A DNA stretch of 26,404 nucleotides from an uncultured Chthoniobacterales bacterium (GCA_955652155.1 CATPAT010000139.1:1-26404), one strand, 5' to 3'. Shown: positions 2,943 through 26,397, counted from the stretch's first letter. Numbers and translations: made by a program. Notes: generated by a model from the sequence alone, not told the origin.

Positions 2943-2956
2943 TAAGATCGACATCG
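2943..2956 (+). repeat. Dispersed motif TAAGATCGACATCG, exact 14-mer copy
   Basis: 9 nt after the ogt stop, on the sense strand. It also reads as TCGACA-N17-TACCGT (2948-2976) upstream of pdxH. Confidence 0.75.
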
Positions 2957-2996
2957 TCGCCGCCCCGAAATACCGTAAGCGATCGCTGCTTGCTGT

Positions 2997-3647
2997 ATGG
3001 ACAAGGTTTCTCTCGATTACGCCGGTTTTCGCCACGAATACATCGGCGGCGGATTGCGGCGGGCCGATCTCGATCCCGACCCGATCAAACAGTTTCAGAG
3101 CTGGTTCGCCGCAGCGATTAAAGCTGGCATTTCCGATGCCAACGCGATGACTCTGGCTACCTGCGTGGACAATAAACCGTCCGCCCGCGTGGTGTTACTC
3201 AAGGATTTTGATGAGCGCGGTTTTGTTTTCTTCACGAATTATTCCAGCGACAAAGGCCGGCAGCTTGAGAAAAATCCAACGGCCGCGCTGGTGATGTATT
3301 GGATGGAAGTGGAGCGTCAGATCCGAATCGAGGGAAAGGTGGAAAAAACTTCGCGCGAAGAATCCGAGGAATATTTCCACACCCGGCCTTTCGGCGCACA
3401 ACTTGGAGCGTGGACTTCGCACCAAAGCGCGGTGATTGATGGGCGGCGAGTTCTCGATGCTCGTCTCGAAGAAATGAAACAACGTTTCGCTGAAGGACGG
3501 ATTCCACTTCCGCCGCACTGGGGTGGATTTCGTCTCAAACCCGACCGGATGGAGGTTTGGCAGGGACGCCCAGACCGTTTGCACGATCGATTTCGTTACA
3601 CGTTGCAATCGAGTGGTTCTTGGTCGATAGACCGGCTCGCGCCGTGA
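2997..3647 (+). CDS. pdxH: Pyridoxamine 5'-phosphate oxidase
   Basis: DANAMTLAT, PSARVVLLK, FFTNYSSDKG, RQIRIEG, YFHTRP, PPHWGG, EVWQGRPDRLHDR. Confidence 0.97.
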   Translation: MDKVSLDYAGFRHEYIGGGLRRADLDPDPIKQFQSWFAAAIKAGISDANAMTLATCVDNKPSARVVLLKDFDERGFVFFTNYSSDKGRQLEKNPTAALVMYWMEVERQIRIEGKVEKTSREESEEYFHTRPFGAQLGAWTSHQSAVIDGRRVLDARLEEMKQRFAEGRIPLPPHWGGFRLKPDRMEVWQGRPDRLHDRFRYTLQSSGSWSIDRLAP

Positions 3648-3689
3648 TATCCGACCAGCGCGTTCGCCGTGGCAGTTGCGAATCAATTG

Positions 3690-4139
3690 ATGATGGATCC
3701 GATCGATGAAGATTTTGTGAATGACGAACCTCTCGGCGCCGAGCAAAAGGCGTCGGCGCGAAAACGCCGCCGCCGCCCGCCCAGCGTCTTGGAGCCTCCT
3801 CCTCGTCGCCGGGAACAAATTGGCGGGAGAACGAGTCGAGAACGGACCGAGCTGTTTCTTCGCGAAAATCCGGTGCCGATAATTCTTGGCGCCCTCGTTG
3901 CCGGACTCGCCATCGGTCTGGCGATTCATTACACATCGCGCTCCGAAAAAGAAGTGGAAGTGAAAACGCCGCTTGGGCGCATCAACTGGAGCGTGCTTTC
4001 GCTGCCGTTTCTCTGGCCGCTCTTCCGCGGAATGAAAGAGAGTCTCGAAGGCTCCACGGATTCAATCAGGGAGGGCGTGAAGAATATCGATCGCTACACC
4101 AAGCCGATCCGCAAACGCTGGAAATCCTGGACCGATTGA
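3690..4139 (+). CDS. Hypothetical membrane-anchored protein with an ElaB/YqjD(DUF883)-like segment
   Basis: ELFLRENPVPIILGALVAGLAIGLAI resembles the YqjD/ElaB tail anchor, and there is a second hydrophobic stretch. The start is uncertain (GTG 3669 or ATG 3690/3693). Confidence 0.6.
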   Translation: MMDPIDEDFVNDEPLGAEQKASARKRRRRPPSVLEPPPRRREQIGGRTSRERTELFLRENPVPIILGALVAGLAIGLAIHYTSRSEKEVEVKTPLGRINWSVLSLPFLWPLFRGMKESLEGSTDSIREGVKNIDRYTKPIRKRWKSWTD

Positions 4140-4145
4140 GCTTCC

Positions 4146-4195
4146 TGTCATTTCGACCGACGTGGAGAAATCTCTTACTGTTTCTGAAATCAGAG
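4146..4195 (+). repeat. Truncated REP-like intergenic repeat of the TGTCATTTCGAC...GAGAAATCTC type
   Basis: TGTCATTTCGACCGACGTGGAGAAATCTC right after a stop codon matches a repeat family I recall from many genomes. The complementary second half (..CGACATGACA) is absent. Confidence 0.5.
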
Positions 4196-4204
4196 TGCTA
4201 ATCT
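4196..4204 (+). promoter_or_regulatory. Putative extended -10 promoter (leaderless) for the cytochrome c gene
   Basis: TG-c-TAATCT, then 6 nt, then GTG 4211. No SD. Confidence 0.55.
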
Positions 4205-4210
4205 CGCGGC

Positions 4211-5323
4211 GTGCTGCGCTTCATTGCGTTTTTAGCAATCGCCGTCGCTAGCGTTTCGGCCAAAGAGCCGACGCAAACTCCCGAAGCCGGCGCCAAGTTC
4301 GTCGGCGCGGTTGGATGTCGATCTTCCAGTTGTCACGGCGGCGCCGGCGAAAAACGCAGCCAATACATCACTTGGTCGCAAAAAGATTTTCACACCCGCG
4401 CTTACGCAATTTTGCTGGACGCGCGGTCGGCTCGCATCGGTGAAGCGGTCGGCGTCTCGCAGCCGCAGTCGAGCGCGCGCTGCACCGTCTGTCATTCGCC
4501 TTTTCAATCGGTTGCTCAGACTCGCCTGACCTCAACCGCGCGTCCCGATGAAGGCGTGTCGTGTGAAAGTTGCCACGGCGCGGCCCAACCGTGGCTGCGC
4601 GGACATACCCGCACCGATTGGACTTACGCGACGCGGGTGGCCGCCGGCATGCATGACTTGCGAAATCTCTATGTGCGCGCGAACGCGTGCGTCGCCTGCC
4701 ACCAAAATGTCGACGCTGACATCTTGAAGGCTGGTCACCCCGAACTCGTCTTTGAGCTCGATAGTCAATCGGTCAACGAACCAAAGCACTGGCGCGACGA
4801 CGACTCTTGGAGCGGTGTACGGGAATGGTTGGTTGGGCAAGCAGTAGCACTGCGCGAAGTGATGTGGGCGCTCAACACTCAGAGTGCGCCTTCCGACGAA
4901 CTCAAAGCTCAAGGCTGGGGTTTAGGCTGGCTTCTGGCTGAAACTACCAATGCCGTTCCGGAGTTGCCTAAGATCAGTTCCGGGATGTTAAAGGTTGCGG
5001 AGGCTACTCAAAAAGGTGCGGATGAGTTGGCGCGCGTCGCAGCGGTCTCGAATTGGTCGGAGATGTCTGTGCGTAATCTCCTGTTAGCGCTTGCCTCAAC
5101 CGAAAATCAATTTAGTGGAAAGGGCGTGATGGGCCCACCGCCAGCCGCTCCTCAACGCGCGCAGCGCCTTGTTCTTGCTCTCGAACGACTGAGTCTCACG
5201 CTGAATCTCGCGCCGAATTTAGAAAAAGAACTGACTGCGCTCCGTGAGGATGTGACGCGACACTACGATTTCAATGGAGCAACATTCGCCGAACATCTGC
5301 GCGCGTTTCGCGCAAAGCTGTAG
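4211..5323 (+). CDS. Exported tetraheme c-type cytochrome (cytochrome c554/c-552-like N-domain plus heme-free helical C-domain)
   Basis: Signal peptide MLRFIAFLAIAVASVSA and heme motifs CRSSSCH, CTVCH, CESCH, CVACH. Confidence 0.85.
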   Translation: MLRFIAFLAIAVASVSAKEPTQTPEAGAKFVGAVGCRSSSCHGGAGEKRSQYITWSQKDFHTRAYAILLDARSARIGEAVGVSQPQSSARCTVCHSPFQSVAQTRLTSTARPDEGVSCESCHGAAQPWLRGHTRTDWTYATRVAAGMHDLRNLYVRANACVACHQNVDADILKAGHPELVFELDSQSVNEPKHWRDDDSWSGVREWLVGQAVALREVMWALNTQSAPSDELKAQGWGLGWLLAETTNAVPELPKISSGMLKVAEATQKGADELARVAAVSNWSEMSVRNLLLALASTENQFSGKGVMGPPPAAPQRAQRLVLALERLSLTLNLAPNLEKELTALREDVTRHYDFNGATFAEHLRAFRAKL

Positions 5324-5409
5324 GGTGGATCGAGCAGTCCCTTGCTCGATGTTAAATTGCGGCGGAGCCGCACTAATATCATCGCCCGCGGAGCGGCCGA
5401 TCCACCTTC
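5320..5409 (+). repeat. GTAG-type REP-like multi-hairpin element
   Basis: Starts with GTAG. Outer IR GGTGGATCG (5324-5332) / CGATCCACC (5398-5406). Inner hairpins at 5329-5350, 5358-5372 (GGA loop) and 5381-5401 (GGA loop). Confidence 0.65.
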
Positions 5410-5436
5410 CCGTTTGAATGCTGGTTCCTCCTCGCG

Positions 5437-5452
5437 GAAGATGTCGATCTTC
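5437..5452. repeat. Palindromised copy of the dispersed motif (GAAGAT-GTCG-ATCTTC), 2 nt before the resB ATG
   Basis: Minus strand reads AAGATCGACATC (5451-5440) and forms a 6-bp stem with a tetraloop. Confidence 0.55.
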
Positions 5453-5454
5453 GC

Positions 5455-7449
5455 ATGGCCAAAACAAATCGATCCGACCAGCCCGCGTGGCAGCAGAACG
5501 CGATCTTCGAGTTTTTCTCATCGCTCAAGCTCGCTGTTGTCCTTTTGGCTGTGCTCATCGCGGGCGCGATCGTCGGCACCCTTTACGAATCGAGTTTCGA
5601 CGCCAAAGTCGCGCGCACTTATGTCTATGGCGCGCCATGGTTTAATGCCTGGCTCGTTTTACTCGGCGCGAATTTGACCGCGTCCGCGTTCTCGCGTTGG
5701 CCCTGGAAAAAATATCACACCGCGTTTCTTATTACTCATCTCGGCATCATCACGCTTCTGATTGGGTCGCTCATCGGCCGGATCTTTGGCGTCGAAGGCA
5801 CAATCACGCTCTTCAAGGGCGAAGCGTCGACGAACCGATTGCTGGTCGATCAGCATCAGCTTCGCGTCCATGATCTCGACGGGATCATCAAAGGTTATCC
5901 CGCGGAATTTCTGCATCATCCGCCCGATCCGGAGCATCCAAGAAATCTCGGCCAGCTCGCAAGCGGCGCGCGTTTGCAAATCGTCGATTACGCTCCCGCA
6001 ATCGAAGGCAAACTCAATCCCAGGCCGCTCAAAGACGGCGGCGCGCCGGCGGCGCATTTCAAAATCGAAACGGCGATGATGAACCAGCACTTCGAAAACT
6101 GGTTACTGGCGGACGATCCGCAGCATGGAAGTTTTTCGATGGGACTGGCGAACATCGAACTTAAACGCGGGGCCGCTTCTTCGGTAGTGGCCGGTCCGAG
6201 CCGGACTGGCGTTCTCCCCAGCGGCAAAAATGAAGCGGTTGATCTCGAGGAATCGATTTTCGCTTTCAGCAAAGCGCCGGACGAACAGATCGGTCACGTC
6301 AACAAAGGCGGCAGCACCGGCGCGAAGGTCCGGCTCGAACCACCAGAGAATGGAAACAAAGGCCGTGTCGTAATTTCGTTAAGCGGAAAAGAAACAAGTT
6401 TTGATGTCGCGGAGAATGTTGGCCGGGAAACGAAAATCGAGAAAACGCCCTTCGCACTTAAGATCGACAATTACTGGGCCGATTTTCGGATCGAGAATGG
6501 CAAACCGAATTCGATCAGCGATCAACCGAACAATCCGGCGGTCCTGATTACGATTCGCGGCAAAGGGGTTCCCCAAACGGCATCGGAAACGAAGAATCCG
6601 CATGGCACAGGCGAAATGCCGACGACTGGCGGTCCGCCGACAATGCCGTCCGCTGGCGAAGCAGCGCCGAATCATCTGACCCTGTTCGTTGCAAACGACG
6701 GCGCGCTCTCCTACGAATTGCTCTCGCGCAAGAACGGTAAATCATCCGGCAAGATCGACCTGGACAAGCCGCTGATTACCGGCTGGGCGGATTGGCAGCT
6801 CGTCGTGGACAAAACTCTGCCGCACGCCGAGCAATGGATGGATTTCCGAGCGGCGAAGTCGGAGGCCACAACATCGGCCTCGGGGGCGGCCGAACTGCCC
6901 GACGGCGTGCGTGTTCGGGTGGAACAAAATGGCGAGACATTGGAGCAATGGGTGCCAGCCGGCTGGCAGGTCACAGTGCCCACTTCGCCGAACGAAACGA
7001 TGATTGCCTACGGTTGGAAAACGCTTCCGCTGCCGATTGGGCTCGAGCTGCTCGACTTCGAAGTGAAACGGAACGAAGGCAGCGACAGTCCTGCTGGATT
7101 CAAGAGCACATTACGTGTAACTAATTCAGACGGCCAAAGCGCCGCCGGTTCCTGTTGGATGAATCATCCGTTCAGTTATCCGAGCGGCTGGTTGCGAACT
7201 TGGACCGGATTGACCTACAAAATTTCGCAGGCATCCTGGAATCCGGACAATCTCCAACAAAGCAGCGTCCAAATTTTGCGCGACCCCGGCTGGCTCTTGA
7301 AATGGATCGGTTCGCTCCTTGTTGTCGTCGGCGTGTTCATGATGTTTTATCTTCAGCCCTATCGGAAACAAACTGAAGGCGAACCAATCACGCCGATGGG
7401 TCCGAAACCGGCGAAGGGAGTGCAAGAGGTGCATCCGGTCGCGCGCTGA
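5455..7449 (+). CDS. resB: Cytochrome c biogenesis protein ResB/CcsB (system II)
   Basis: FFSSLKLAVVLL, YGAPWF, THLGIITLLIG, a large periplasmic domain, MNHPFSY, and a final TM after QILRDPG. Confidence 0.88.
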   Translation: MAKTNRSDQPAWQQNAIFEFFSSLKLAVVLLAVLIAGAIVGTLYESSFDAKVARTYVYGAPWFNAWLVLLGANLTASAFSRWPWKKYHTAFLITHLGIITLLIGSLIGRIFGVEGTITLFKGEASTNRLLVDQHQLRVHDLDGIIKGYPAEFLHHPPDPEHPRNLGQLASGARLQIVDYAPAIEGKLNPRPLKDGGAPAAHFKIETAMMNQHFENWLLADDPQHGSFSMGLANIELKRGAASSVVAGPSRTGVLPSGKNEAVDLEESIFAFSKAPDEQIGHVNKGGSTGAKVRLEPPENGNKGRVVISLSGKETSFDVAENVGRETKIEKTPFALKIDNYWADFRIENGKPNSISDQPNNPAVLITIRGKGVPQTASETKNPHGTGEMPTTGGPPTMPSAGEAAPNHLTLFVANDGALSYELLSRKNGKSSGKIDLDKPLITGWADWQLVVDKTLPHAEQWMDFRAAKSEATTSASGAAELPDGVRVRVEQNGETLEQWVPAGWQVTVPTSPNETMIAYGWKTLPLPIGLELLDFEVKRNEGSDSPAGFKSTLRVTNSDGQSAAGSCWMNHPFSYPSGWLRTWTGLTYKISQASWNPDNLQQSSVQILRDPGWLLKWIGSLLVVVGVFMMFYLQPYRKQTEGEPITPMGPKPAKGVQEVHPVAR

Positions 7450-8110: not shown

Positions 8111-10579
8111 TTAGTCTTTCCCTTTTCCGTCTGCTCCATCCGCGCTCGCTGGTTTTGCGGCGCCATCCTTTTCCAAAGCGACGGCAAGGACTTCATCGAC
8201 ATTTTCGACCGGAACGAATTTCAGTTTTTGTTTCGCCTCTTCCGGAACATCGATCAGATCTTTTTCGTTCAGTTTCGGAATGATCACGGTCGAGATGCCT
8301 GCGCGCATCGCGGCCAGACTTTTTTCTTTGAGTCCGCCGATTGGCAAAACCAACCCCCGCAAAGTGATTTCGCCTGTCATCGCGACGTCCGGTCGCACCG
8401 GCGTATTGGTGAAGAGCGAAGCAAGCGCGGTGAACATAGCGATGCCGGCGGACGGTCCATCTTTCGGCACCGCGCCGGCGGGAACGTGCACGTGAATGTC
8501 CATGTCCCGAAAGTCTTCCGGTTTTACGCCGATCTCGCCGTCACGGCTGCGGACAAGGCTGAGTGCGGCTTGGACCGATTCTTTCATCACTTCGCCAATG
8601 TGACCGGTGAGGGTGACGTTTCCCTTGCCCGGATAACGAGTCGCTTCAATGTGCAACACTTCGCCACCGGCCGGTGTGTAAGCCAGGCCGGTGACGACAC
8701 CCGGTTTGCTCGTTTTCAATCTTGTTTCCCGGACGTACTTGGCGGGTCCCAGCATTTGGGCCACTAATTGCGGCGTGACCGTCACGTGCTCCGTCTTGCC
8801 GCGGGCAACGCGCGACGCGATCCCACGACAAATCGCTCCGATCTGGCGCTCGAGCTCCCGCACGCCGGCTTCGTGGGTGTAATCGTTGATGATTTGCCGA
8901 AGCGCGTCGTCCTGCCACTCGCACTGTTCAGGCTTCAATCCATTTTCTTCCATCTGCCTCCGGACCAAATAGCGTTTCGCAATCTCAAGTTTTTCGCGCT
9001 CGGTGTAACCCGGCAACGAAATCACTTCCATCCGGTCGCGCATCGGTTCGGGCACGCCTTCGATGTAATTCGCGGTCGCGATGAAGATGATTTGCGACAA
9101 ATCGAATGGCACATCGAGGTAGCGATCGACAAAAGTGTTGTTTTGTCGCGGATCGAGAACTTCGAGCAGGGCGCTCGCCGGATCGCCGCGAAAATCGGCG
9201 CCGATTTTGTCGATCTCGTCGAGCATGAAAACCGGATTGCGTGTTCCAGCGCGGCGCAACTCCTGAATGATGCGTCCCGGCATTGAGCCGATGTAGGTGC
9301 GTCGATGTCCGCGAATTTCCGCTTCGTCCCGCATTCCACCGAGACTGATCCGGACAAATTTGCGACCGAGCGCGTCCGCGATCGATTGCCCAAGACTTGT
9401 TTTGCCCACTCCGGGCGGTCCGAGAAAACACAAGATGGGGCCGTGTCCGGTTGGATTGAGTTTGCGCACGGCCAGATATTCGATCAGCCGCTTTTTCACT
9501 TTCTCGAGGTCGTAATGGTCACGATCGAGAATTTGCTGGGCTTGATCGAGATCGAGATTGTCCTGGCTTAATCTGTTCCAGGGCAGATCGGCGACAATCT
9601 CGATGTAACTGACGATGACGGAAAATTCGGGACTGGCCGGTGGAATGAAATCGAGCCGTTTCAATTCGCGCTCCGCTTGCTTCATCACTTCGGGCGGCGG
9701 CTTGGCCTCCTCGAGTCGCTGCCGCAATTGTTCCATTTGCTCTTCGCTACCGGTTTCGGTTTCACCGAGCTCGTGCTGGATCGCTTTGATCTGCGAACGC
9801 AAATAGGCGCGACGTTGTGCGTCGGAAAATTGAGACGCGACGTCCTTCTGCAATTTTTCCTGGATCTGCGCGATCTCGAGTTGCGCCGAGATGTGCTTCT
9901 GGACTGCGTGCAATCGTTTCTCGACGTCGGCTTCTTCGAGCAATGCCTGCTTTTGCCCGACATCGATATTCAAATTCGGCGCCAGAAAATCCGCGAGTTG
10001 TTCCGGAGTGGCGATGTTCAGAATCATCAAGCGCGCTTGCTCTGGCGCTTCCGGAGTCAGCTCGAACAATCTCGCGGCCGAATCGCGCAGATTCCGAAAC
10101 GTCGCTTTCCACTCCTTGCTCTCGGGTGGCGAAATGGATTTTACCAGGTCGACTTCCGCGCGAATAAATGGCGAAGTCGCGACGATTTTGCGCAACGTAA
10201 ATCGACTGAGGCCCTGGGCGATGATGAGCAAATGATCGTCAGCCTGGCGAATCATTTTGAGCACCAGCGCCGCGGTGCCGACGTGGTAAAGGTCCTGAGG
10301 TTCCGGGTCTTCCTTTGTCTCGTCGCGCTGCGTCAAAAGACCGATCACTTTTGTGCGCGGCAACGTTTCGTCGAGCAATTGAATCGAAGCCGGTCGCCGG
10401 ACATTGAGCGGCACAATCGTTCCCGGAAAAACAACGAACCCGCGCACCGGCAAAATCGACAATTCCTCCGGAATCTGTGGGACACGGCTTTCGTCGGTCA
10501 CGTCCGCGGCAATTGTCGGACCGGTGTTGGATTTCATTTCCAGTTCGGCCGGCACGGCGATTTGTTCTTCGTTCATCAT
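8111..10579 (-). CDS. lon: ATP-dependent protease La
   Basis: LON N-domain (VVFPG), Walker A GPPGVGKTS, Walker B FMLDEIDK, catalytic Ser in PKDGPSAG and Lys in IGGLKEK. True start is ATG 10579, overlapping the hsp20 stop (ATGA), not 10843. Confidence 0.97.
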   Translation of the reverse strand: MMNEEQIAVPAELEMKSNTGPTIAADVTDESRVPQIPEELSILPVRGFVVFPGTIVPLNVRRPASIQLLDETLPRTKVIGLLTQRDETKEDPEPQDLYHVGTAALVLKMIRQADDHLLIIAQGLSRFTLRKIVATSPFIRAEVDLVKSISPPESKEWKATFRNLRDSAARLFELTPEAPEQARLMILNIATPEQLADFLAPNLNIDVGQKQALLEEADVEKRLHAVQKHISAQLEIAQIQEKLQKDVASQFSDAQRRAYLRSQIKAIQHELGETETGSEEQMEQLRQRLEEAKPPPEVMKQAERELKRLDFIPPASPEFSVIVSYIEIVADLPWNRLSQDNLDLDQAQQILDRDHYDLEKVKKRLIEYLAVRKLNPTGHGPILCFLGPPGVGKTSLGQSIADALGRKFVRISLGGMRDEAEIRGHRRTYIGSMPGRIIQELRRAGTRNPVFMLDEIDKIGADFRGDPASALLEVLDPRQNNTFVDRYLDVPFDLSQIIFIATANYIEGVPEPMRDRMEVISLPGYTEREKLEIAKRYLVRRQMEENGLKPEQCEWQDDALRQIINDYTHEAGVRELERQIGAICRGIASRVARGKTEHVTVTPQLVAQMLGPAKYVRETRLKTSKPGVVTGLAYTPAGGEVLHIEATRYPGKGNVTLTGHIGEVMKESVQAALSLVRSRDGEIGVKPEDFRDMDIHVHVPAGAVPKDGPSAGIAMFTALASLFTNTPVRPDVAMTGEITLRGLVLPIGGLKEKSLAAMRAGISTVIIPKLNEKDLIDVPEEAKQKLKFVPVENVDEVLAVALEKDGAAKPASADGADGKGKD

Positions 10580-10980
10580 TGTTTTAGCGGCAGCGAAATC
10601 CAGAGCAACCCGTTGCGTTGTTCGGCCCTGGCTTGATCGACCTCTACTTCGGCTGGCAATGCGACCTCGCGCTCGAACGGTCCGTAATCGATTTCCATCG
10701 CCAGCAAGCGCACCGCTCGGCCTTCGGCGCGCGTCGGTTCCGGCAGCTCCCGCGCCCCGCGAATCAGAACGCGCTGCGGCTCGACGATGAGATCGATTTG
10801 CGATCGTTCGACCCCGGCGAGATCGACACAGATCCGAACGCATTTTTCGCAGCGGTAAGCATTGATTGCGGGCTCCCAGGTGTGGGGCCCGAATTGAAAT
10901 TGTGAACGCGCCAGCTCGTAAGTGACGTCATGCAACGCGCCGTGGAGCCAACGCAATTTAATGCTGCCGATCGGGTCCAT
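10576..10980 (-). CDS. Hsp20/alpha-crystallin small heat-shock protein
   Basis: WEPAINAY, VDLAGV, IDYGPFEREVALP, NGLLWISLP. Confidence 0.88.
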   Translation of the reverse strand: MDPIGSIKLRWLHGALHDVTYELARSQFQFGPHTWEPAINAYRCEKCVRICVDLAGVERSQIDLIVEPQRVLIRGARELPEPTRAEGRAVRLLAMEIDYGPFEREVALPAEVEVDQARAEQRNGLLWISLPLKQ

Positions 10981-11095: not shown

Positions 11096-11109
11096 CGATG
11101 TCGATCTTA
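11096..11109 (-). repeat. Dispersed motif TAAGATCGACATCG, exact 14-mer copy
   Basis: 12 nt after the amidohydrolase stop, on the sense strand. Confidence 0.75.
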
Positions 11110-11121: not shown

Positions 11122-12798
11122 TCAGCGCACTTTGCCGGGACCCCACAACGCACGTCCAGGTTTCGCGCCGGTGTGTTCGCCGTCCTTGATCACTTGGGCG
11201 CCGTTCACAAAAACATCCTTCACGCCAGTCGCGTATTGCTGCGGCTTTTCGAATGTCGCGTGATCGGCGATGGTCGCCGGATCAAACACGACCACGTCGG
11301 CGAACATTCCTTCTTTCAAAAATCCGCGATGATCGAGCCCGAGATTGGTTGCGGGTAACGCGCTCAATCTTCGAATCGCTTCCGGTAGCGCGATCATTTT
11401 TTCGTCGCGGACATATTTGCCGAGGACGCGCGCGAAATTTCCGTAGGCCCGCGGATGCGGATTCGATTTCAGGAAAACGCCTTCCGGCGCTTGTGACGCC
11501 TCATCGGAGCCGAACGAAATCCACGGCTTCGCGATTTCCTTCTTTACGTTTTCTTCCGACATCATGAAATAAACGGCGCCGATGCGCGATTCATCTTCGG
11601 CGACGAGGTCCATCGCGGTGTCGATCGGATCTTTACCGCGCATCTTTGCGACTTCGGCGAGCGATTTGCCGGTGAGCGGTTTTAGTTTTTCCGATTTGAA
11701 GCCAACGAGGATGATGCGATCCGGCGAACCGGCGGAGAGGTACAGATTTTCCCATTTGTCGCTGTCGATTTTGACTTCGGCTTTGATTCTTTCGCGTGTG
11801 GCCGGATCGCGCAGCCGTTTGAAGAGGGCTGGATAACCGCCGTCCTCGGTCCATGGCGGGAAACAGGCATCGAGTCCGGTTCCGCCGGCGGTATAGGTGT
11901 ACATGTTCGCGCGAATGTTGAGCCCTTCCTTCTGCGCTGACTCGATCCGTGAAAGGAGATTGTCGATTTTGCCCCAGTTTTTCTGGCCGGCGGCTTTGAT
12001 GTGATAAACCTCCGCCGGAATTCCGGCTTCGCGACTGATCCGGAGCAACTCGTCGAATGCTTCGAGCAATTGGTTTCCTTCGCTCCGCATGTGCGAGATG
12101 TATTTGCCTTTGTATTTGGCGGCGACTTTGCAGAGTTCGATCAATTCATCCGTCTTCGCGTAAAATGCCGGCGGATAAATCAATGACGTCCCGATGCCGA
12201 GCGCGCCTGCTTCCATTTCTTTGCGGACGAGCTCGCGCATTTGATCAAGCTCCTGCGGTGTCGGCGGGCGATCGTCAAAGCCGATAACATTCTGGCGAAT
12301 GGTGGTCGCGCCGATAAATGACGCGACGTTGCAGGAAATGCCGCGCTTCTCCAGAAACTGGAGATACTCCGTCAGCGTCTTCCATGTAATGTCGTATTTA
12401 ACGTCGGCCTGCTGCTTCAGCATGAATTCACGAACACGATCGTTCATCGGCCCCATCGATTCGCCTTCGCCCATGATCTCGGTGGTCACGCCCTGACGAA
12501 TTTCGCTTTGCGAGCGGCCATCCTGGATCAGCGATTCCGTTGACCACGACAGCATGTTGATAAACCCGGGTGCGACCGCCAGCCCGCGCGCATCGATAAC
12601 CGTTTTCGCCTTTGCGTTTTTGTAATCGCCCGCCCCTGCGATGCGATCGCCGCGAATGGCAAGATCGACATGTTGCGCTTCGCCGCCGGTACCATTGTAA
12701 ACGGCGCCATTCGTAATAATGACATCGAAGTCGGCGGCAATGATAGAGACGCTTGTCGCCGCCAGGAGTAAGCTGAAACAGAAAATTGCGCGCTTCAT
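11122..12798 (-). CDS. Exported N-acyl-D-amino-acid deacylase (D-aminoacylase)-like amidohydrolase
   Basis: Signal peptide, DVIITNGAVYNGTG, VAPGFI, GVTTE, SHMR, VYHIK, GSD, HPRAYGNFARVLG, DRGFLKEGMFADVVVFDP-type C-terminus. Confidence 0.88.
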   Translation of the reverse strand: MKRAIFCFSLLLAATSVSIIAADFDVIITNGAVYNGTGGEAQHVDLAIRGDRIAGAGDYKNAKAKTVIDARGLAVAPGFINMLSWSTESLIQDGRSQSEIRQGVTTEIMGEGESMGPMNDRVREFMLKQQADVKYDITWKTLTEYLQFLEKRGISCNVASFIGATTIRQNVIGFDDRPPTPQELDQMRELVRKEMEAGALGIGTSLIYPPAFYAKTDELIELCKVAAKYKGKYISHMRSEGNQLLEAFDELLRISREAGIPAEVYHIKAAGQKNWGKIDNLLSRIESAQKEGLNIRANMYTYTAGGTGLDACFPPWTEDGGYPALFKRLRDPATRERIKAEVKIDSDKWENLYLSAGSPDRIILVGFKSEKLKPLTGKSLAEVAKMRGKDPIDTAMDLVAEDESRIGAVYFMMSEENVKKEIAKPWISFGSDEASQAPEGVFLKSNPHPRAYGNFARVLGKYVRDEKMIALPEAIRRLSALPATNLGLDHRGFLKEGMFADVVVFDPATIADHATFEKPQQYATGVKDVFVNGAQVIKDGEHTGAKPGRALWGPGKVR

Positions 12799-12824: not shown

Positions 12825-12838
12825 CGATGTCGATCTTA
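12825..12838 (-). repeat. Dispersed motif TAAGATCGACATCG, exact 14-mer copy
   Basis: 15 nt after the DUF6428-like stop. It also reads TCGACA-N17-TTCAAT-N6-ATG(12798). Confidence 0.75.
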
Positions 12839-12853: not shown

Positions 12854-13333
12854 TCAAGTCGAACAGCATGGCGCAGTCGCATTTGCGCAGCATGAGTCTG
12901 TTTTTAAAAGCGCAATTCTACGGTCGCGCACTTTGCAGATCGTGGCCGGCGGTACCAGCGACACGCGGGTGACGCCTTGCTGTTGGGCGACCGCTTCGAC
13001 GTGATATGTCGATGGAAAGAAATTATCGTCGCCGTACTCGACTCGAATTTCCGAGTCCAAATTGAGCGGGATCATGCCGCCGACTTTGTCGAAAATTTTC
13101 AGGAACTTCCCGACGGTCATGTAATCGGGATCCGGATCGGAAGGCACCCAGAGTTGCGCGATCGTTTCCTGCCACTGATTCGTCTGACCGCCGCAATCAA
13201 CTGTGTGCAACCATACCGCCTTCAATTCGGTCAGATGATAGCTGCGGTGAACGGCGTGGCCGTCAAGATCGACAAAGATCAACAGATTGCTTGGCGCGTC
13301 ACGCAGTTCCGAAATGAATTTGCCGGTTTTCAT
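12854..13333 (-). CDS. DUF6428-like protein with a Cys-rich tail
   Basis: YHLTELK, VDCGG and QLWV motifs, C-terminal SCCANATAPCCST. ATGA overlap with arsR. Confidence 0.75.
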   Translation of the reverse strand: MKTGKFISELRDAPSNLLIFVDLDGHAVHRSYHLTELKAVWLHTVDCGGQTNQWQETIAQLWVPSDPDPDYMTVGKFLKIFDKVGGMIPLNLDSEIRVEYGDDNFFPSTYHVEAVAQQQGVTRVSLVPPATICKVRDRRIALLKTDSCCANATAPCCST

Positions 13334-13798: not shown

Positions 13799-14884
13799 CT
13801 ATTTCGCCGAGTCCTTGAGCAGCTGCACCAATTCATCCTTCCAGAGCGCCGCAATCGTGTGGCTGCCGTGGCCGCGCGTTTTGTCGCTGAGTGGAATGAC
13901 CATGGCGCGACCGTGCGGAACGCGCTTAATTTCCCGCTCGAGAATTCCAAGGTCTGGTGGATTGATCAGATCGTCGGCCGAATTGATTGCGAGCAACGGG
14001 GCCCGAATTTTTTCCAGGTTCGAGCCAGGATCGTAATCGTGCGATGCTTCCAGCGCATAGAGAACATCGTTCGCGTCCTCTACTTTCACGATTTGCTCGA
14101 CGAATTTGTCGAGCACTTCGTCAGTCTTCGCGAGTGTGGGCGCTTCTTTTTGGCGCAGGACCGGATTGCTGCTCATGAACCAGAGCATCTCAGCAGCGGT
14201 GCGCAGACTCGGCGGTTGTCCCGCGGCCGCGGGATATTCGCCGCCGTTCCAAGCCGGATCGTTCCGAATCGCGTCAATGATGATGCGCCGCCAGGCGCGA
14301 TTGCGGCCGGAAATTTGGGTCGGCAAACTGGCCAGCGGCATGAGGGCGTCCATGAACTCGGGATGCGATTCACCCCAAAGCCAGGTGTGCATTCCGCCCA
14401 TTGACGTGCCCATGACCAGCCGCGCGTGATTGACGCCGAGTCCGTCGATTAACAATCGATACTGCGCTTCGACCATGTCGATGTAACCGTAGCGCGGAAA
14501 CTTCGCGTGCATGCCATCGCTCGGTTTGCTCGATTTGCCGTGGCCGATTCCGTCCGGGAGCACGACAAAAAACTTCGTCGCATCGAGGGGCTGATCTTTT
14601 CCGAAAAGTTCACCGGCAAATTCCGGGCGGATAAATTGTGCGCCGGTGCCAGTGGTCCCGTGCATGATGAGAACGGCGTTGCGCGTTTTGCCCTGGGCGT
14701 CTTTGTCGATCTTGCCGAGAGTTCGACAATGGATTCGCAACTCGGGCAGAGTTTCACCTGAGGCAAACTTGAAGTCACGAATCGTGTAATCGCCTTCCGT
14801 CGAGGTGGGATAATCGGCTGCGGCCAGCGTGCCAGTCGCAGTGATCAGGGAAAGGCATGCGAACGTTCGGATTCTCGGAATCAT
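13799..14884 (-). CDS. Exported alpha/beta hydrolase, homoserine O-acetyltransferase (MetX)-like family
   Basis: MHGTTG, PDGIGHGKSS, nucleophile GTSMGG, acid INSADD, and His in GHGSH. Signal peptide from ATG 14884, 1 nt after the upstream stop. Confidence 0.85.
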   Translation of the reverse strand: MIPRIRTFACLSLITATGTLAAADYPTSTEGDYTIRDFKFASGETLPELRIHCRTLGKIDKDAQGKTRNAVLIMHGTTGTGAQFIRPEFAGELFGKDQPLDATKFFVVLPDGIGHGKSSKPSDGMHAKFPRYGYIDMVEAQYRLLIDGLGVNHARLVMGTSMGGMHTWLWGESHPEFMDALMPLASLPTQISGRNRAWRRIIIDAIRNDPAWNGGEYPAAAGQPPSLRTAAEMLWFMSSNPVLRQKEAPTLAKTDEVLDKFVEQIVKVEDANDVLYALEASHDYDPGSNLEKIRAPLLAINSADDLINPPDLGILEREIKRVPHGRAMVIPLSDKTRGHGSHTIAALWKDELVQLLKDSAK

Positions 14885-17176: not shown

Positions 17177-18898
17177 GTGAGACATCTCCACCTCGCCTTG
17201 ATGGCGGCATCTCTGGTTGCGATCACGCATTTCGACGCAATGGCTCAAGAGCGAAACTCGCCGCCGCCGGCCGCAGACACGAGCGGGCTTGATTTCCATC
17301 AGTTCGGGTTGCTCGCGGTCCAAGACGGTGGACGGCGCAAACCGATCGACACCTTTTCGCGTGAGACACTGATTCGAATCACCGGAAGATCGACATATGT
17401 CGGCAAAGCTGGACGCAAATGGCAGGCGAACGATTTCGTTTTGTCCGGCTCATTGGAAACGCACGATTGGCGGACGGAGCCGATGGTGCTGGTCTCGTTA
17501 GGCCAACTTAAGGAAAAGCTCGGCCTCGATAAGACGGAGCGCCGTTTTTCGTTTGAACAATTGGTTGGGTCAACGGAATTGCAGCGGCTCACAAACGAAG
17601 CCCACGCCTTGAAGCGCGCTGAGAAAACGCTCGATCGTGTGCAACAGGAGGCGCTGGCAGTAAGCGATCGGCTCGCCCTTTTGGCGAACGTGATGAATGG
17701 AACCGCGCTTCTGATTGTTCCCGCATCGAAGAGCGAAACCGACCCTTGGGTCGTTCCCCCAGAGTTTTCCCGGTACTACAGCGAAACGCAGTTCGCGCCG
17801 GTCCAGATCGAACTGCAAACAATGGCCACGAGTTATGTGCAGGCTGATGGCTTCAATTTCAGTCGCGCCGCCAGCCGGCTTCGTGAAAGTTTGCGTGCCC
17901 TCAGTCCTTCCGTTTATCCGCAAGAGCGACAACTGCGGCTGGAATATTTTTACAATCATTTCGAAGCGTTCTATCGCGCGATTTGGTTCTACGGGCTGGC
18001 GTTTCTGATTCTGCTGGTCGCGCACGCGCGTGGCGGCGGCCGTTTGCTTCGAACCGTCGGCGTAGCGGTTGCAACCCTCGCCATCGCTTTTCACGCCAGC
18101 GGAATCGTGATGCGCTGTTTCATCGCGGGGCGGCCGCCAGTGACGAACATGTACGAATCGGTCATCTGGGTTTCGTTCGCTGCGTCAGCGTTCGCAATGA
18201 TCTTTTACGCTCGTTACCGAACTCTGATCTATCTGATCGCTGCGTTACCGGCGACATTCCTTGCGTTGTTACTTGTCCATCAGATGCCGATCGCGATGCC
18301 CGCGAGCATCGATCCTCTCGTGCCTGTGTTACGTGATAATTTCTGGCTCACCATTCACGTGTTGACGATCACGTTGAGCTACGCCGCGTTCTTGCTCGCA
18401 TGGGCGTTCGGCAACTTAATGTTCGTTCTCTATACTGTTCAACCCGCGCGGACGCGTGAAAACGCCGCCTTACATTTCTGGCTGTACCGCATCATGCAGC
18501 TTGGCGTTCTTTTGTTGGCAGCTGGGACAATCCTTGGAGGTGTGTGGGCGAACTATTCCTGGGGCCGGTTTTGGGGCTGGGACCCGAAAGAGACCTGGGC
18601 GTTGATCGCACTGCTTTGTTATCTGACCGCGCTGCATGGTCGATTAGCCGGTTGGTGGACCGAATTTGGTCTAGTGGTGGCGAGCGTGATCTGCTTTCTG
18701 GCGGTGTTGATGGCCTGGTACGGCGTCAACTTTGTCCTCGGCAAAGGTTTGCATTCGTACGGATTCGGGATCGGCGGCGAGACCTATGTCGCGATTGGCG
18801 TGGTTCTCGATCTCCTGTTCGTGGCATTCGCGGTCTGGCGCTACCGATCAAGTAAACGCATCCCCTCCAGCACGCCGGCGGAAGCGGTGGCCGTCTAA
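17177..18898 (+). CDS. ccsA: Cytochrome c synthase CcsA/ResC (system II) with a large N-terminal periplasmic domain
   Basis: GRRKPIDTF, GRPPVTNMYES, FWLTIHV, WWD domain WGRFWGWDPKETW, GLHSYG. Signal-like N-terminus from GTG 17177 (or ATG 17201). Confidence 0.92.
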   Translation: MRHLHLALMAASLVAITHFDAMAQERNSPPPAADTSGLDFHQFGLLAVQDGGRRKPIDTFSRETLIRITGRSTYVGKAGRKWQANDFVLSGSLETHDWRTEPMVLVSLGQLKEKLGLDKTERRFSFEQLVGSTELQRLTNEAHALKRAEKTLDRVQQEALAVSDRLALLANVMNGTALLIVPASKSETDPWVVPPEFSRYYSETQFAPVQIELQTMATSYVQADGFNFSRAASRLRESLRALSPSVYPQERQLRLEYFYNHFEAFYRAIWFYGLAFLILLVAHARGGGRLLRTVGVAVATLAIAFHASGIVMRCFIAGRPPVTNMYESVIWVSFAASAFAMIFYARYRTLIYLIAALPATFLALLLVHQMPIAMPASIDPLVPVLRDNFWLTIHVLTITLSYAAFLLAWAFGNLMFVLYTVQPARTRENAALHFWLYRIMQLGVLLLAAGTILGGVWANYSWGRFWGWDPKETWALIALLCYLTALHGRLAGWWTEFGLVVASVICFLAVLMAWYGVNFVLGKGLHSYGFGIGGETYVAIGVVLDLLFVAFAVWRYRSSKRIPSSTPAEAVAV

Positions 18899-18904: not shown

Positions 18905-19483
18905 TTATTTCCGGGGCAAACGCGCTTCGCAGATCTCGCAAAGCACGTGAAGAATAAACTTGTGCGCTTCCTGAATTCGAGCGGTCGAATCGCTTTTCAC
19001 AATAAGATCGACATCGGCCAAGCCAGCCGCGGCTCCGCCGTCGCGGCCGAGGAGCGCGATTGTTTTTAATTTTCGATCGCGCCCTTCTTTGATCGCACGC
19101 CGGACATTTTTCGATTTGCCGCTGGTGCTGATGGTAATCAGGACGTCACCGGAATTTCCGAACGCGCACACTTGGCGCGCGAAAACTTCTTCGAAGCCGT
19201 AATCGTTTCCAATCGCAGTGACCAAACTTCCGCCCTGCGAAAGATTCATCGCCGGATACGGCCGGCGATCTTCCACAAAGCGACACGCCAGCTCGGTGCA
19301 AAAATCGGCCGCGTCCGCGGCGCTGCCGCCGTTGCCGCAAGCCAGCACCTTTTTGCCATTCGTTAGGCAATCGACGATTAAGTCGGCTGCTTTCGCGATT
19401 TGCGATTCAAGATCGACGATCGATTGCAGTGTTGTCGTCGCCGCACCGATTGCGCTCTTTAGAATTTCAGATGAGCTGCGCAT
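18905..19483 (-). CDS. gmhA: Phosphoheptose isomerase (SIS domain)
   Basis: CGNGGSAADA, IGNDYGFEEVFARQ, STSGKSKNV, TARIQEAH. Confidence 0.9.
   Translation of the reverse strand: MRSSSEILKSAIGAATTTLQSIVDLESQIAKAADLIVDCLTNGKKVLACGNGGSAADAADFCTELACRFVEDRRPYPAMNLSQGGSLVTAIGNDYGFEEVFARQVCAFGNSGDVLITISTSGKSKNVRRAIKEGRDRKLKTIALLGRDGGAAAGLADVDLIVKSDSTARIQEAHKFILHVLCEICEARLPRK
19003..19016 (+). repeat. Dispersed motif TAAGATCGACATCG, exact 14-mer copy inside gmhA (antisense)
   Basis: Encodes ADVDLI on the minus strand and lies 104 nt after the ccsA stop, in ccsA's sense orientation. Confidence 0.6.
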
Positions 19484-22958: not shown

Positions 22959-23336
22959 ATGGTGGCCAAACTCGACGGACCGCAGTTTTCCGGTGGCGCC
23001 AATATTGCAATCAAATGTCCCGCGCACACATACGATCAAACAGTCGCCTTTTATCGCGACACCCTCGCGCTGCCATTGATCGAAGAAGAATCCGATGGCT
23101 GCATTTTTCAGTTCGGTCCGAACCGGCTCTGGATCGACAAAGTGCCGAATCTGAGTCATCCCGATATTTGGCTCGAGATCGAGACGAACGACACCGAGGC
23201 CGCCTCGTCGTTTCTAAAGATTCACGGCGTCGCGCGTCGCGATGAAGTGGAAAATCTGCGCGAAGATTTCAACGGCTTCTTCATCTCCGATCCCGCCGGC
23301 GTCGTTCATCTCGTGGTCGGCCCGGAAGAAGTTTAA
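22959..23336 (+). CDS. VOC/glyoxalase-like protein
   Basis: NIAIKCP, TVAFYRDTLALP, FQFG, WLEIET, FFISDPAGVVHLV. Confidence 0.8.
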   Translation: MVAKLDGPQFSGGANIAIKCPAHTYDQTVAFYRDTLALPLIEEESDGCIFQFGPNRLWIDKVPNLSHPDIWLEIETNDTEAASSFLKIHGVARRDEVENLREDFNGFFISDPAGVVHLVVGPEEV

Positions 23337-23342
23337 ACTCGA

Positions 23343-23354
23343 ATGTCGATCTTA
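23343..23354 (-). repeat. Dispersed motif TAAGATCGACAT (12-mer copy) supplying the GNAT stop codon
   Basis: Occupies the short gap between two convergent stop codons. Confidence 0.7.
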
Positions 23355-23840
23355 AACGGGGCGACCCATGATGGTCAGGTCGCGTTCCACAGCATCGAGT
23401 TGCGCGATGCGCGGAAGTAATCCCCAGCGCTCGAAGCCAAGTTGTTCGAACAATCGTAAGCTTGGTTCGTTGTGCGCGAAAATCAGACCAACCATCGCCT
23501 TGATCTGAAGGGACGGCGCGCGAGCGATCGCTTCCCCGAGTAATGTTCGGCCGACTCCGCGCCGCCGGAGTCGTTCATCGACATAGACGCTCACTTCAGC
23601 CGTTCCGCGATAAGCGCAGCGCGGCAAAAAAGGTTTTAACGTGAGCCATCCGGCGATTTTGCGGTCGATTTCCAAAACCCAAAATGGATGTCGATCCGGG
23701 GAATGCTCCTTTAACCAGTTCCGTCGTTCGTCCAGCGTGACCTGCTCCAACTGCGCAGTAGCAACACGAGTCGCGACCGCGGCGTTGTAAATTTTAATGA
23801 TCGCGGGCAAATCGGACTCAACCGCGTCGCGGATTTTCAT
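23352..23840 (-). CDS. GNAT N-acetyltransferase, YncA/phosphinothricin acetyltransferase family
   Basis: MKIRDAVESDLPAIIKIYN, AYRGTAEVSVYV, RRRGVGRTLL, HNEPSLRLFEQLGF. Likely start 23840. Confidence 0.9.
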   Translation of the reverse strand: MKIRDAVESDLPAIIKIYNAAVATRVATAQLEQVTLDERRNWLKEHSPDRHPFWVLEIDRKIAGWLTLKPFLPRCAYRGTAEVSVYVDERLRRRGVGRTLLGEAIARAPSLQIKAMVGLIFAHNEPSLRLFEQLGFERWGLLPRIAQLDAVERDLTIMGRPV

Positions 23841-23884
23841 TTCTTCCGCTGTCTCTGGCCGTCGATGTTCAACCGCAACCCCGC

Positions 23885-24730
23885 TCATGCTGCCGGGAAA
23901 AATGCGTTCTCGAAAGTCGGCTGAAATGCGCCGAGCTCAGTCTCGCCGATGCGAAACCTCGGACTGATATCCGATTGGGTAGCACAAAAAAGTTCGATAT
24001 CGATCTTGCCGCATTTGCTGAGCGCCTCGCGTACAGTTTGGAGCGCGAGCCCGGGGGTGTTGCAATCGCGGCTAAGATGTCCAAGCACGACCCGATCAAT
24101 TTTTCCGGGAAGCAATTCTTCGATCACGGTGGCGGCCGCGTTATTGGAAAGATGCCCGTGCCGCGACTGGATCCGCTGTTTCACCGGCCAGGGCCGATGT
24201 GTGTCGCTCTGTAACAGTTTCTCGTCATGGTTGGTTTCGATCACGAGCGTGTGCACTTGTCGAAGGCGTTCCACAATCATCTTTGTGGCGTAACCGAGGT
24301 CGGTGATAAACCCGAGGCCGCGCGCTCCGGCATAAAACGCGAAGCCGACGGGATCGACCGCGTCGTGCGGCACCGGAAAAGTTTGGACAAGGACGTCGCA
24401 AATCTTGAACTCGGCGCCGGTGCGAAAGATTCGCCAGTTCCGATGTCGATCCAACGCGCCGTCGGAACGGACTGCTTCGGCGGTTTGCGCGTTCGCATAA
24501 ATCGGCAGATCGAATTTGCGACAGAGCACCTCCAGCCCGCAAACGTGATCGCCATGCTCGTGTGTAAGCAGAACGCCATCCAGCTGTTCGGCCATCACGC
24601 CGCACTGTTCGAGGCGCAATACGATTTGTCGCGCGCTCAGGCCGCCATCGATCAGAATTTTGCAATGATCGGTCGCGACCAGCGCGCTATTCCCGGCACT
24701 GCCGCTCCCGAGCATCGTCAAACTGAACAC
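23885..24730 (-). CDS. MBL-fold metallo-hydrolase, YycJ/WalJ family
   Basis: LGSGSAGNS, LIDGG, THEHGDH, PHDAVDP, TDLG, ETNHD, GHLSN, GHLSRDCN. Confidence 0.9.
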   Translation of the reverse strand: MFSLTMLGSGSAGNSALVATDHCKILIDGGLSARQIVLRLEQCGVMAEQLDGVLLTHEHGDHVCGLEVLCRKFDLPIYANAQTAEAVRSDGALDRHRNWRIFRTGAEFKICDVLVQTFPVPHDAVDPVGFAFYAGARGLGFITDLGYATKMIVERLRQVHTLVIETNHDEKLLQSDTHRPWPVKQRIQSRHGHLSNNAAATVIEELLPGKIDRVVLGHLSRDCNTPGLALQTVREALSKCGKIDIELFCATQSDISPRFRIGETELGAFQPTFENAFFPAA

Positions 24731-24753
24731 GACCGGTATTTAGCGACTGCGTG

Positions 24754-25482
24754 TCAGTTTTCGCAAATTAAATTCACGCGCCGCGATAAAATTTCGCCGC
24801 CTGGCAGCGCGAGGATTCGTTTTTTCTTGTCGGAATAATCGAGGGATCGGAAACGCCGAATTTCATCAAGCCGCCGTGCACCGTTCAGGGTGTCGAGATA
24901 GTGAGTGTAACTCGAGGCCAGCTCGGTTGTCTCCAGATAACGCGCCCGGAGGTTGCGATCGCGAAACGCTTCCGGGCATTGCCGTGCGAAAAGATGAAAG
25001 CGGAGCCAGCGGCGGTCAGTGCGTGAAACGCGTTGGGTTTTTCGAAAGAAGGCAACGAACAAAAGAAGAACAAGATAGGTATCGACCTGCGCCTGGAGCT
25101 CGAGATTGCGAGCAAAATCTTCCGAGGCGATCTCACGCGCGCCATTTTTAAACTGAAGCGCGGCGTGGAGGGCGTGATTGATTTCTTCTACGAACGCGAT
25201 GAGCGAACGGATATTGTGATCGCTCAGGCCAGCGCGCGGGTCGTGTCGCTCGAGTTGTTCGATCAGCCAACGTGAATAATAAATACCGACGTAAAGGCGA
25301 TCATCGGCCGTGCGCAGAAATGTGCGGGCAAGCTCACTCAATTCGCGGGCCGCTTTGCCAGCCAAGATCGACAATTGCCCGCAGCGGTGCCGATCAATCA
25401 GGCAATCTTCGAGATTGATCCCAACCTGCGCGTACGTGCGCTCGAAAAGCTTTTGGATTTGACTGAAAAGGCTCTCGTTCAC
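24754..25482 (-). CDS. Conserved-looking hypothetical protein with an EExxH..H / ELQAQVD putative metal site
   Basis: 242-aa ORF with GTGA overlap with the upstream gene; motifs VEEINHALH and LELQAQVD. Confidence 0.75.
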   Translation of the reverse strand: MNESLFSQIQKLFERTYAQVGINLEDCLIDRHRCGQLSILAGKAARELSELARTFLRTADDRLYVGIYYSRWLIEQLERHDPRAGLSDHNIRSLIAFVEEINHALHAALQFKNGAREIASEDFARNLELQAQVDTYLVLLLFVAFFRKTQRVSRTDRRWLRFHLFARQCPEAFRDRNLRARYLETTELASSYTHYLDTLNGARRLDEIRRFRSLDYSDKKKRILALPGGEILSRRVNLICEN

Positions 25483-26201
25483 AGAACGAGCGATGGTCGC
25501 GCATCTTCATCGAGATGAAGCAAGCGATCGGAGAGTTCGTTGAGCGCGAGGCGAACGTCGTGGAAGCGACTGGCTAATCCGGCGAAGACATCGGTGAGTT
25601 CGCAGCGTCGCGCGGTTTCGTGCGAAGCGACAAGCTGATAATTGCTGCGACCGACTTGTTCGTAAAATTCGATGTCGGGCGCACCGCGAAGACTGCGCCG
25701 CTGCGTGTTCTCGTGAAAGATGCCACTGATGAAAAGGGAGTAATTTCCAACGTGCGCGCGCAGGAGGAAAGTTTGCTCGGGCGTGGTGCGGGTGAGTGCG
25801 ATAAGCATGTCGGAAATGTATTCGTGGGCGCGGTTGTTCGCCCCGGCGAATCCGTCCTTTGGCGGATCGATCTTGTTCGGGCTCTGCAATTGGTTCGCAC
25901 GCGAAAAAGTTTCGAGCAGCGAGCCGACATAATCGCAAAGTTTGCGATCACCAATGCCGGCCTGCTGCAAGACGTAGCGGGCGAGAACATAAAAATAGAA
26001 TTGGGACGAGATGTGGAGATGGCCCGCATTGGAAAGAATGGTCTCGACCAGGCGCGGATGATCGAGAATCGAGTCGCGGGTTTCCGAGTCACCGAGAAGA
26101 TCGACCAGGGAAACGCTATCGCCGCGCGAGCGAGCGAGGGTGCGGACAATAAAATCGAAATCCGCGACGGTGAAACGTGCCCGACAATTTGCCCTAATCA
26201 T
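25479..26201 (-). CDS. Conserved-looking helical hypothetical protein
   Basis: 240-aa ORF with FYFYVLAR, HVGNYSLFISGIF and FYEQVGRSNY; translationally coupled to the next gene. Confidence 0.78.
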   Translation of the reverse strand: MIRANCRARFTVADFDFIVRTLARSRGDSVSLVDLLGDSETRDSILDHPRLVETILSNAGHLHISSQFYFYVLARYVLQQAGIGDRKLCDYVGSLLETFSRANQLQSPNKIDPPKDGFAGANNRAHEYISDMLIALTRTTPEQTFLLRAHVGNYSLFISGIFHENTQRRSLRGAPDIEFYEQVGRSNYQLVASHETARRCELTDVFAGLASRFHDVRLALNELSDRLLHLDEDARPSLVL

Positions 26202-26256
26202 CGCACCCTCCGTTCACCAGCATTGACGATGCCGCAGCCAACTTTGTTCGAGGCGA

Positions 26257-26285
26257 CGTTTATTTCGGTTCGCCTCGTTAGTCAA
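26257..26285 (-). promoter_or_regulatory. Putative sigma70 promoter of the 26201 gene cluster
   Basis: TTGACT (26285-26280)-N17-TAAACG (26262-26257). Confidence 0.45.
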
Positions 26286-26385
26286 GAGCGTCCCGTGGGC
26301 GTAATGATTCCGACGCTCGGCGCGGATTTGCAAATGATCGTGCTCGCCTCATAATAAACGCGCTCTTTTCGGAATCGATCAGCAG

Positions 26386-26397
26386 GATGTCGATCTT
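26386..26397 (-). repeat. Dispersed motif core AAGATCGACATC
   Basis: 12-mer at the window edge; context beyond 26404 is unknown. Confidence 0.5.

Follow-up and report, generated by a model that had tools for sequence, protein, structure and literature searches.

A hyperabundant ten-base word in the family of 'Candidatus Udaeobacter', a tentative DNA-uptake-type self tag of soil Verrucomicrobiota

A contig of 26,404 nucleotides from an uncultured Chthoniobacterales bacterium (GCA_955652155.1, CATPAT010000139.1:1-26404), analysed at its full length and here called the window, carries a short sequence that recurs after stop codons, and the question it raises is whether such a sequence is read in the RNA, as a mark of gene ends, or in the DNA. 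A first-pass annotation had taken the 14-mer TAAGATCGACATCG for a strand-oriented 3'-end or gene-boundary signal, and had named a signal at the level of the DNA, for instance an uptake sequence, as a fallback. The word is not an RNA or gene-boundary signal, and the fallback is the best-supported reading. Judged on its genomic features, and a little short of what we would call probable, AAGATCGACA(A/T) may be a DNA-uptake-type self tag of a clade of soil Verrucomicrobiota within the Chthoniobacterales, in the family of 'Candidatus Udaeobacter'.

The window makes up an entire contig of a metagenome-assembled genome (MAG) of 1.96 Mb that is 53% complete (G000). Its fumarase has its relatives among 'Candidatus Udaeobacter', Chthoniobacterales and Verrucomicrobiota MAGs, and the soil metagenomes of 13 studies hold DNA near-identical to the window. 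Among all 10-mers of G000 AAGATCGACA ranks first, with 681 copies where Markov models of orders 0-5 expect 2.8-55. Synonymous-codon shuffling of the genes gives 49 copies in total (30±6 sense and 19±4.5 antisense), against 574 observed in coding DNA (244 sense and 330 antisense), so that the doubt whether composition or codon usage could account for the recurrence, which the first-pass annotation had itself raised, is answered. The unit is the 10-base word with a preference for A or T after it, and not the 14-mer: a logo over all AGATCGAC sites confines the information to A-AGATCGAC-A-(A/T), with none beyond the 11 bp of AAGATCGACA(W), and a T preceding the word is not enriched (120 of the 681 copies). 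The overrepresentation of the 14-mer is itself real, with 10 sites at up to two mismatches in the window against 0.32 expected from dinucleotide shuffles. Fifteen exact copies of TAAGATCGACATCG occur genome-wide in G000, four of them on the window contig, which we read as a local coincidence since the genome-wide count fits independent flanks. The word is sharp, with 681 perfect and 813 one-mismatch copies in G000, and on one contig (C14) of a second genome, G057, the perfect word occurs 1070 times while its 30 one-mismatch variants together reach 257. Over the 2.9 Mb of the latter genome there are 4653 copies, which make up about 1.6% of it; known uptake sequences take up to about 2% of a genome (bioRxiv 10.1101/2025.10.24.684340).

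The word is non-palindromic and contains GATC, and its two orientations are used alike. G000 has 354 forward and 327 reverse copies, neighbouring copies share their orientation in 231 of 451 cases and oppose each other in 220, orientation in G000 shows no correlation with GC skew, and the plus and minus counts of G057 are near equal in most 20-kb bins over 737 kb. A replication-polar word of the kind of Chi or the FtsK-orienting polar sequences (KOPS) was rejected on this random orientation. With our own codon-usage gene calling (86% coding), 574 of the 681 copies in G000 (84%) lie in genes, 96 are intergenic and 11 sit on gene borders. Coding DNA has 0.34 copies per kb, and non-coding DNA has 0.40. 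The genic copies occupy several frames on both strands, with preferred frames among them, and the sense copies favour frame 0 (K-I-D). Close pairs are no more frequent in G000 than expected by chance.

An alignment of G000 to 400 kb of G001, a genome of the same genus, gave 232 kb of aligned DNA at 83% identity, and in this the word stands out from its surroundings. It is intact in both genomes at 54-55% of sites, compared with 21% for all 10-mers and 17% for flanking 10-mers, and the identity per position within the word is 0.83-0.97, at least 0.89 at nine of the ten positions, while the flanks lie at 0.7-0.9 with a three-base period. The unshared sites differ by a single base in 68 of 109 cases, and copies emerge by point substitution at orthologous positions with the length unchanged. 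In the conserved peptide ELSILP of the Lon protease, synonymous changes make the word in 6 of 22 genomes. The word is maintained as DNA.

It is also the property of one lineage. A survey of 151 genomes of the family sampled 36 genera, of which 13 carry about 520-4650 copies of AAGATCGACA per genome (g1, g19, g21, g23, g25, g27, g28, g30, g36, g44, g45, g47 and, at the top, g40 with up to 4653 in 2.9 Mb), four are intermediate (g22, g24, g26, g35) and about 19 are at background (8-110). The 27 genomes scored in the genus of the window have 155-1474 copies each, and 125-148 were counted in two genomes that bear the name Ca. Udaeobacter sp. In density the enriched range spans about 45-1600 per Mb, and the survey of related Chthoniobacterales genomes that had been suggested from the window places this enrichment in a single nested clade of the family, and the count in 12 further families of the order is 0-19. 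The word was at background level in about 600 other genomes searched; its highest count was 60 among 292 other Verrucomicrobiota genomes and 37 among 301 Gemmatimonadota genomes, and neither set shows enrichment. The IMG/VR phage contigs with the 14-mer version, at least 80 of them, have at most two copies each among the matches listed, which is the level of chance. The counts include the unpublished genomes G005, G032, G037, G044, G159, G174 and G694, on which no conclusion rests; G032, G037 and G044 are also rows of the tree described below.

Some genera carry a second word, GCCTAACGA, which in G057 reaches 0.6 per kb with the logo G-CCTAACG-A. Its counts are high in g16, g17, g18, g32, g33, g39 and g40, with a maximum of 4336 in one genome, and moderate in a number of further genera. 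Most genera rich in AAGATCGACA have it at a low yet elevated level (124 copies in G000), and 15 other families of the order have 0-40 copies. Genera g20 and g43 are without either word, and no third hyperabundant word was found in 200 kb of each of g20 and g37. For the phylogeny we chose rpoB, since the Lon protease of the window (8111-10843, minus strand) went unmatched at E<=1e-100 in 22 of 51 family genomes, near-complete ones included, and is not a universal marker in the family. In the rpoB tree of 42 family genomes and three outgroups, the AAGATCGACA-enriched genomes lie nested within a single derived group (support of 87 in the Shimodaira-Hasegawa-like approximate likelihood ratio test, SH-aLRT), with g19 and g47 in a polytomy. 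The approximately unbiased (AU) test did not reject a single AAGATCGACA clade (p=0.42), the group having been named after the tree was seen. Genus g37, with neither word, is basal, and the early branches carry GCCTAACGA. We read this as an older word GCCTAACGA that was joined, and largely replaced, by AAGATCGACA in a derived subclade, as in a switch of reader specificity.

Contig C14 of G057 carries AAGATCGACA at 1.7 per kb except in one stretch, where a single copy is found against about 185 expected, and where GCCTAACGA is likewise depleted. The stretch is an integrative conjugative element (ICE) of about 108 kb (G057:C14, about 350,580-459,400, loci L111-L116) that sits at a tRNA-Thr(TGT) gene with a 41-bp direct repeat on its flanks. 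It has genes for TrbI, VirB4/TraC-like, TraG-like and coupling proteins and a TrwC relaxase, and its cargo comprises two RND efflux pumps, a P-type ATPase, multicopper oxidases (copper resistance) and an SNF2-methyltransferase fusion. The ICEs of Neisseria are recognised by an equivalent deficit of the uptake word (PMC7371117).

Several of the genes that transformation would call for are present. ComEC is intact in all nine genomes tested, DprA was found in nine of nine near-complete genomes, and PilT-family ATPases that pass the curated cut-off number 2-5 per genome, alongside secretins and pilin clusters. Taken with the abundance, neutral orientation, conservation and turnover of the word, the pattern matches the defining genomic features of the DNA uptake sequences (DUS) and uptake signal sequences (USS). 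We infer from this a receptor that binds the word, a bias in uptake, and transformation. A surface receptor, probably a component of the type IV pilus, would bind the word in double-stranded DNA, the DNA of relatives would be preferentially taken up, and ComEC, DprA and RecA would then import and recombine it. Uptake bias and recombination together would, through point substitutions, spread the word to every position that tolerates it, as a molecular drive, and would maintain it there, and mobile DNA that was newly acquired would be without it.

A number of observations weigh against uptake. ComEA-type HHH_3 proteins were not found in the genus of the window, neither with PF12836 (0 of 13 genomes) nor with TIGR00426 (0 of 5), several of these genomes being 95-98% complete, and they are present in 9 of 13 genomes of the word-poor genus g20. 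Many genera of the family do have HHH_3 matches, for the most part within open frames some 280-410 aa long and often fused to a staphylococcal-nuclease domain; in a family-wide scan the presence of ComEA was unrelated to the density of either word, and ComEA was rejected as a correlate. The word-poor genome G069 also has ComEC, DprA and secretins, so that the machinery is only permissive. Against the ComP_DUS Pfam model the pilin-like proteins reach 22.6 bits, under the cut-off of 27.3, and the weakly matching pilin family occurs in 146 of the 151 family genomes and was rejected as a correlate for being near-universal; no gene was found that correlates with AAGATCGACA. Inverted pairs of the word are few and it is not linked to terminators, in contrast to DUS and USS. 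In G057 two unrelated words each reach a high density, which would call for two readers or for a switch in the recent past. The same genome has doublets of AAGATCGACA in the same orientation, 25 pairs at exactly 15 bp and 14 at 16 bp where about one per distance is expected (start to start, direct repeats), 24 of the 39 in spacers and often beginning on a TAA stop, and such fixed doublets are more usual for a cooperative DNA-binding protein. Apart from the doublets the spacing of copies is near random (coefficient of variation 0.93 vs 1.00±0.03). A literature search found no paper on uptake or transformation in this lineage, and nothing relevant was found on the word strings or on Udaeobacter competence or transformation. 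Examples of the doublets, and of the nuclease fusion, in G057 are:

C14, 14791: same-orientation doublet of AAGATCGACA
C14, 16088: same-orientation doublet of AAGATCGACA
C14, 70594: same-orientation doublet of AAGATCGACA
C3, locus L134:1495-2514, minus strand: fusion of a staphylococcal nuclease with a ComEA-like HHH_3 domain, 339 aa

It is possible, though we hold it with clear doubt, that these features belong together in an undescribed self-DNA marking system of the Udaeobacter family, the specificity of which switched from GCCTAACGA to AAGATCGACA in one subclade, and the reader of which binds head-to-tail pairs 15-16 bp apart and does so without a ComEA-type protein.

The hyperabundance and the conservation as DNA would fit equally well with a word that is read inside the cell, in the manner of HIP1 of the cyanobacteria. 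An abundant sequence-specific protein, with a part in recombination, repair, methylation or the organisation of the chromosome, would then bind AAGATCGACA, and selection or biased repair would keep the sites, with no uptake at all. The doublets of G057, which suggest cooperative head-to-tail binding, and the failure to find ComEA in the genus of the window argue for such a reader, as does the fact that some genomes hold two words together. The pattern of HIP1 is comparable, and its function is unsettled (PMC5861425, PMC4390886). A reader in the cell would on the other hand have to recognise a non-palindromic word with a spacing close to random, no candidate for it was found, and a chromosome-wide function leaves unexplained why whole genera are without either word. 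In spite of the GATC within the word, methyltransferases of the Dam type (D12), the class surveyed, are sporadic (27 of 151 genomes) and unrelated to the density of the word, and were rejected as a correlate. We regard an intracellular reader as a possible explanation, and a doubtful one.

It is improbable that the word is a self/non-self mark for a nuclease or another defence system, like a Chi site without polarity, by which word-rich DNA would be spared and word-free DNA attacked. An ICE without the word and the confinement of the word to one lineage are what such a mark would leave behind, but the word-free ICE is stably integrated. Chi and KOPS are moreover co-oriented with replication, and here the neighbouring copies agree in orientation about as often as they differ; we know of no orientation-free defence system of this kind.

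That the word would be a strand-oriented signal for RNA 3' ends, termination, processing or stability was suggested by the window itself, which has 14 perfect copies, eight of them in genes, one as the stop of a GNAT gene and five in non-coding DNA. The positions described in the first-pass annotation are all correct: the exact TAAGATCGACATCG at 2943(+), 11096(-), 12825(-) and 19003(+), and the shorter or variant copies at 5440(-), 23343(-), 26386(-) and 22946(+). So are the genes and the distances from their stops, 9 nt past Ada/Ogt, 12 nt past the amidohydrolase, 15 nt past DUF6428, as the TAA stop itself in GNAT, and 104 nt past CcsA within the convergent SIS/GmhA gene. The copies of AAGATCGACA, followed by one variant and by the second word, are placed as follows:

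2944..2953, plus strand: intergenic, 11 nt past the Ada/Ogt stop, within the exact 14-mer at 2943
4316..4325, minus strand: antisense in a multihaem cytochrome c gene
5442..5451, minus strand: in a spacer, 4 nt upstream of a ResB-like gene
6460..6469, plus strand: sense, frame 0 (K-I-D), in the ResB-like gene
11099..11108, minus strand: past the amidohydrolase stop, with the exact 14-mer at 11096
12661..12670, plus strand: antisense in the amidohydrolase gene
12828..12837, minus strand: past the DUF6428 stop, with the exact 14-mer at 12825
13265..13274, plus strand: antisense in the DUF6428 gene
14704..14713, minus strand: sense, frame 0, in an alpha/beta hydrolase gene
17386..17395, plus strand: sense, frame 2, in the CcsA gene
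19004..19013, plus strand: antisense in the SIS/GmhA gene, with the exact 14-mer at 19003
23344..23353, minus strand: overlapping the end of the GNAT gene, where the preceding T and the word form the TAA stop
25364..25373, plus strand: antisense in a gene for a hypothetical EExxH protein
26388..26397, minus strand: non-coding, at the contig end
22947..22956, plus strand: one-mismatch variant TAGATCGACA, directly upstream of an ATG
17495..17503, minus strand: second word GCCTAACGA, with further copies at 19360(-), 20308(+) and 22464(+)

The bias towards stops is real but minor. In G000 nine sense copies have their first base at +1 relative to a TAA stop, and within 10 nt from the stop there are 15 copies in sense and 6 in antisense, compared with about two per bin within genes. 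The 737-kb contig of G057 has 34 sense copies that begin at +1, which is 13% of the TAA-ending genes, and 18 antisense copies begin at +4, usually as TAG-T-TGTCGATCTT. The hot spot, somewhat stronger in sense, holds about 5% of the copies in G000 (within 30 nt past a stop) and about 12% in G057. It is accounted for by the stop codons within the word, because T and the word together contain TAA and the reversed ...ACTA variant, a common extension, contains TAG, so that a copy in such a frame must end its gene, and also by the relaxed constraint on the DNA just past stops. What does not stand is the orientation and the role at gene ends: most copies lie within genes and more often antisense than sense, convergent 3'-3' spacers are not favoured (0.36 per kb against 0.50 per kb in divergent spacers), and terminator-like hairpins are not enriched (28 vs 31 in shuffles), nor is there an association with hairpins and U-tracts, so a terminator was rejected. 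We give an RNA 3'-end signal next to no credence. A remnant of a mobile repeat, whether a miniature inverted-repeat transposable element (MITE) or the minimal repetitive extragenic palindrome (REP) that had also been proposed, or a side effect of some recurring peptide or of codon usage, is a negligible prospect in spite of the many copies and the preference of the sense copies for frame 0, as MITE and REP are rejected by a logo with nothing conserved past 11 bp, by gain and loss through single substitutions at orthologous sites with no change in length and by the 84% of copies in genes, and a peptide or codon artefact by the several frames on both strands and by codon shuffling (49 against 574).

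Longer repeats of other kinds occur in these genomes as well. The 16-mer GCCAGTCCGGCTCGGA is found 29 times in G000, on many contigs, as part of a longer and partly palindromic repeat that looks like a REP-type element unrelated to AAGATCGACA. A stretch of another genome that is poor in both words (G088:C10:1-200000, L184-L193) has longer repeats with AGTCGAGGGATC and GCTCGGGATGAC, about 20 per 200 kb, which are probably REP- or MITE-like elements.

To our knowledge, sequence-specific DNA uptake has for decades been known from only two proteobacterial families, the relatives of Neisseria and of Haemophilus. If AAGATCGACA is an uptake sequence, transformation with a preference for self is far more widespread than that, or else some other mechanism is able to fill up to 1.6% of a genome with a 10-mer. 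If a self-DNA marking system of the kind outlined above exists in the Udaeobacter family, it would be the third kind of genome-wide self tag to have evolved independently and the first outside Proteobacteria and Cyanobacteria, whether it serves uptake or a role within the cell. Gene flow and species cohesion in an abundant soil lineage, the relatives of 'Candidatus Udaeobacter', would become testable, and the nested pattern of two words is a natural experiment on word turnover. The word is at the same time a marker that separates native from mobile DNA in these MAGs, as it did in revealing the ICE, and a handle by which its reader protein could be pulled down.

Among the systems already known, Chi and KOPS, together with the architecture imparting sequences (AIMS), are likewise lineage-specific and over-represented oligomers, but they are co-oriented with replication and far less dense, whereas AAGATCGACA is randomly oriented. 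HIP1 (GCGATCGC) is closer, being a hyperabundant short word in genes and spacers that is conserved beyond codon needs and varies in density between lineages. Its function is debated, and recent work ties it to transformation and horizontal transfer (bioRxiv 10.1101/2024.09.10.611283; PMC13756078). HIP1 is however a palindrome tied to orphan methyltransferases for GATC and CGATCG, while AAGATCGACA is asymmetric and is not tracked by methyltransferases of the Dam type. The DUS of the Neisseriaceae, GCCGTCTGAA and its dialects, have ComP as their receptor, and the USS of the Pasteurellaceae, with the core AAGTGCGGT, have ComN as the predicted one. From these the word differs in belonging to another phylum and in its unrelated sequence, and also in that ComEA was not found in the genus of the window and no homologue of ComP or ComN was found above threshold. 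It differs further in its few inverted pairs, the missing association with terminators and the direct doublets at 15-16 bp, and in that the two words of the family are unrelated and are not dialects set apart by one to three bases. What it shares with them is a non-palindromic word of 9-10 nt with copies in the hundreds to thousands (here up to 1.6% of the genome) that lies on both strands, in spacers and, at tolerated frames, in genes. It shares with them as well the restriction to a single lineage with a change of word within the family, the conservation as DNA, the depletion in an ICE, and the genes for type IV pili, ComEC and DprA.

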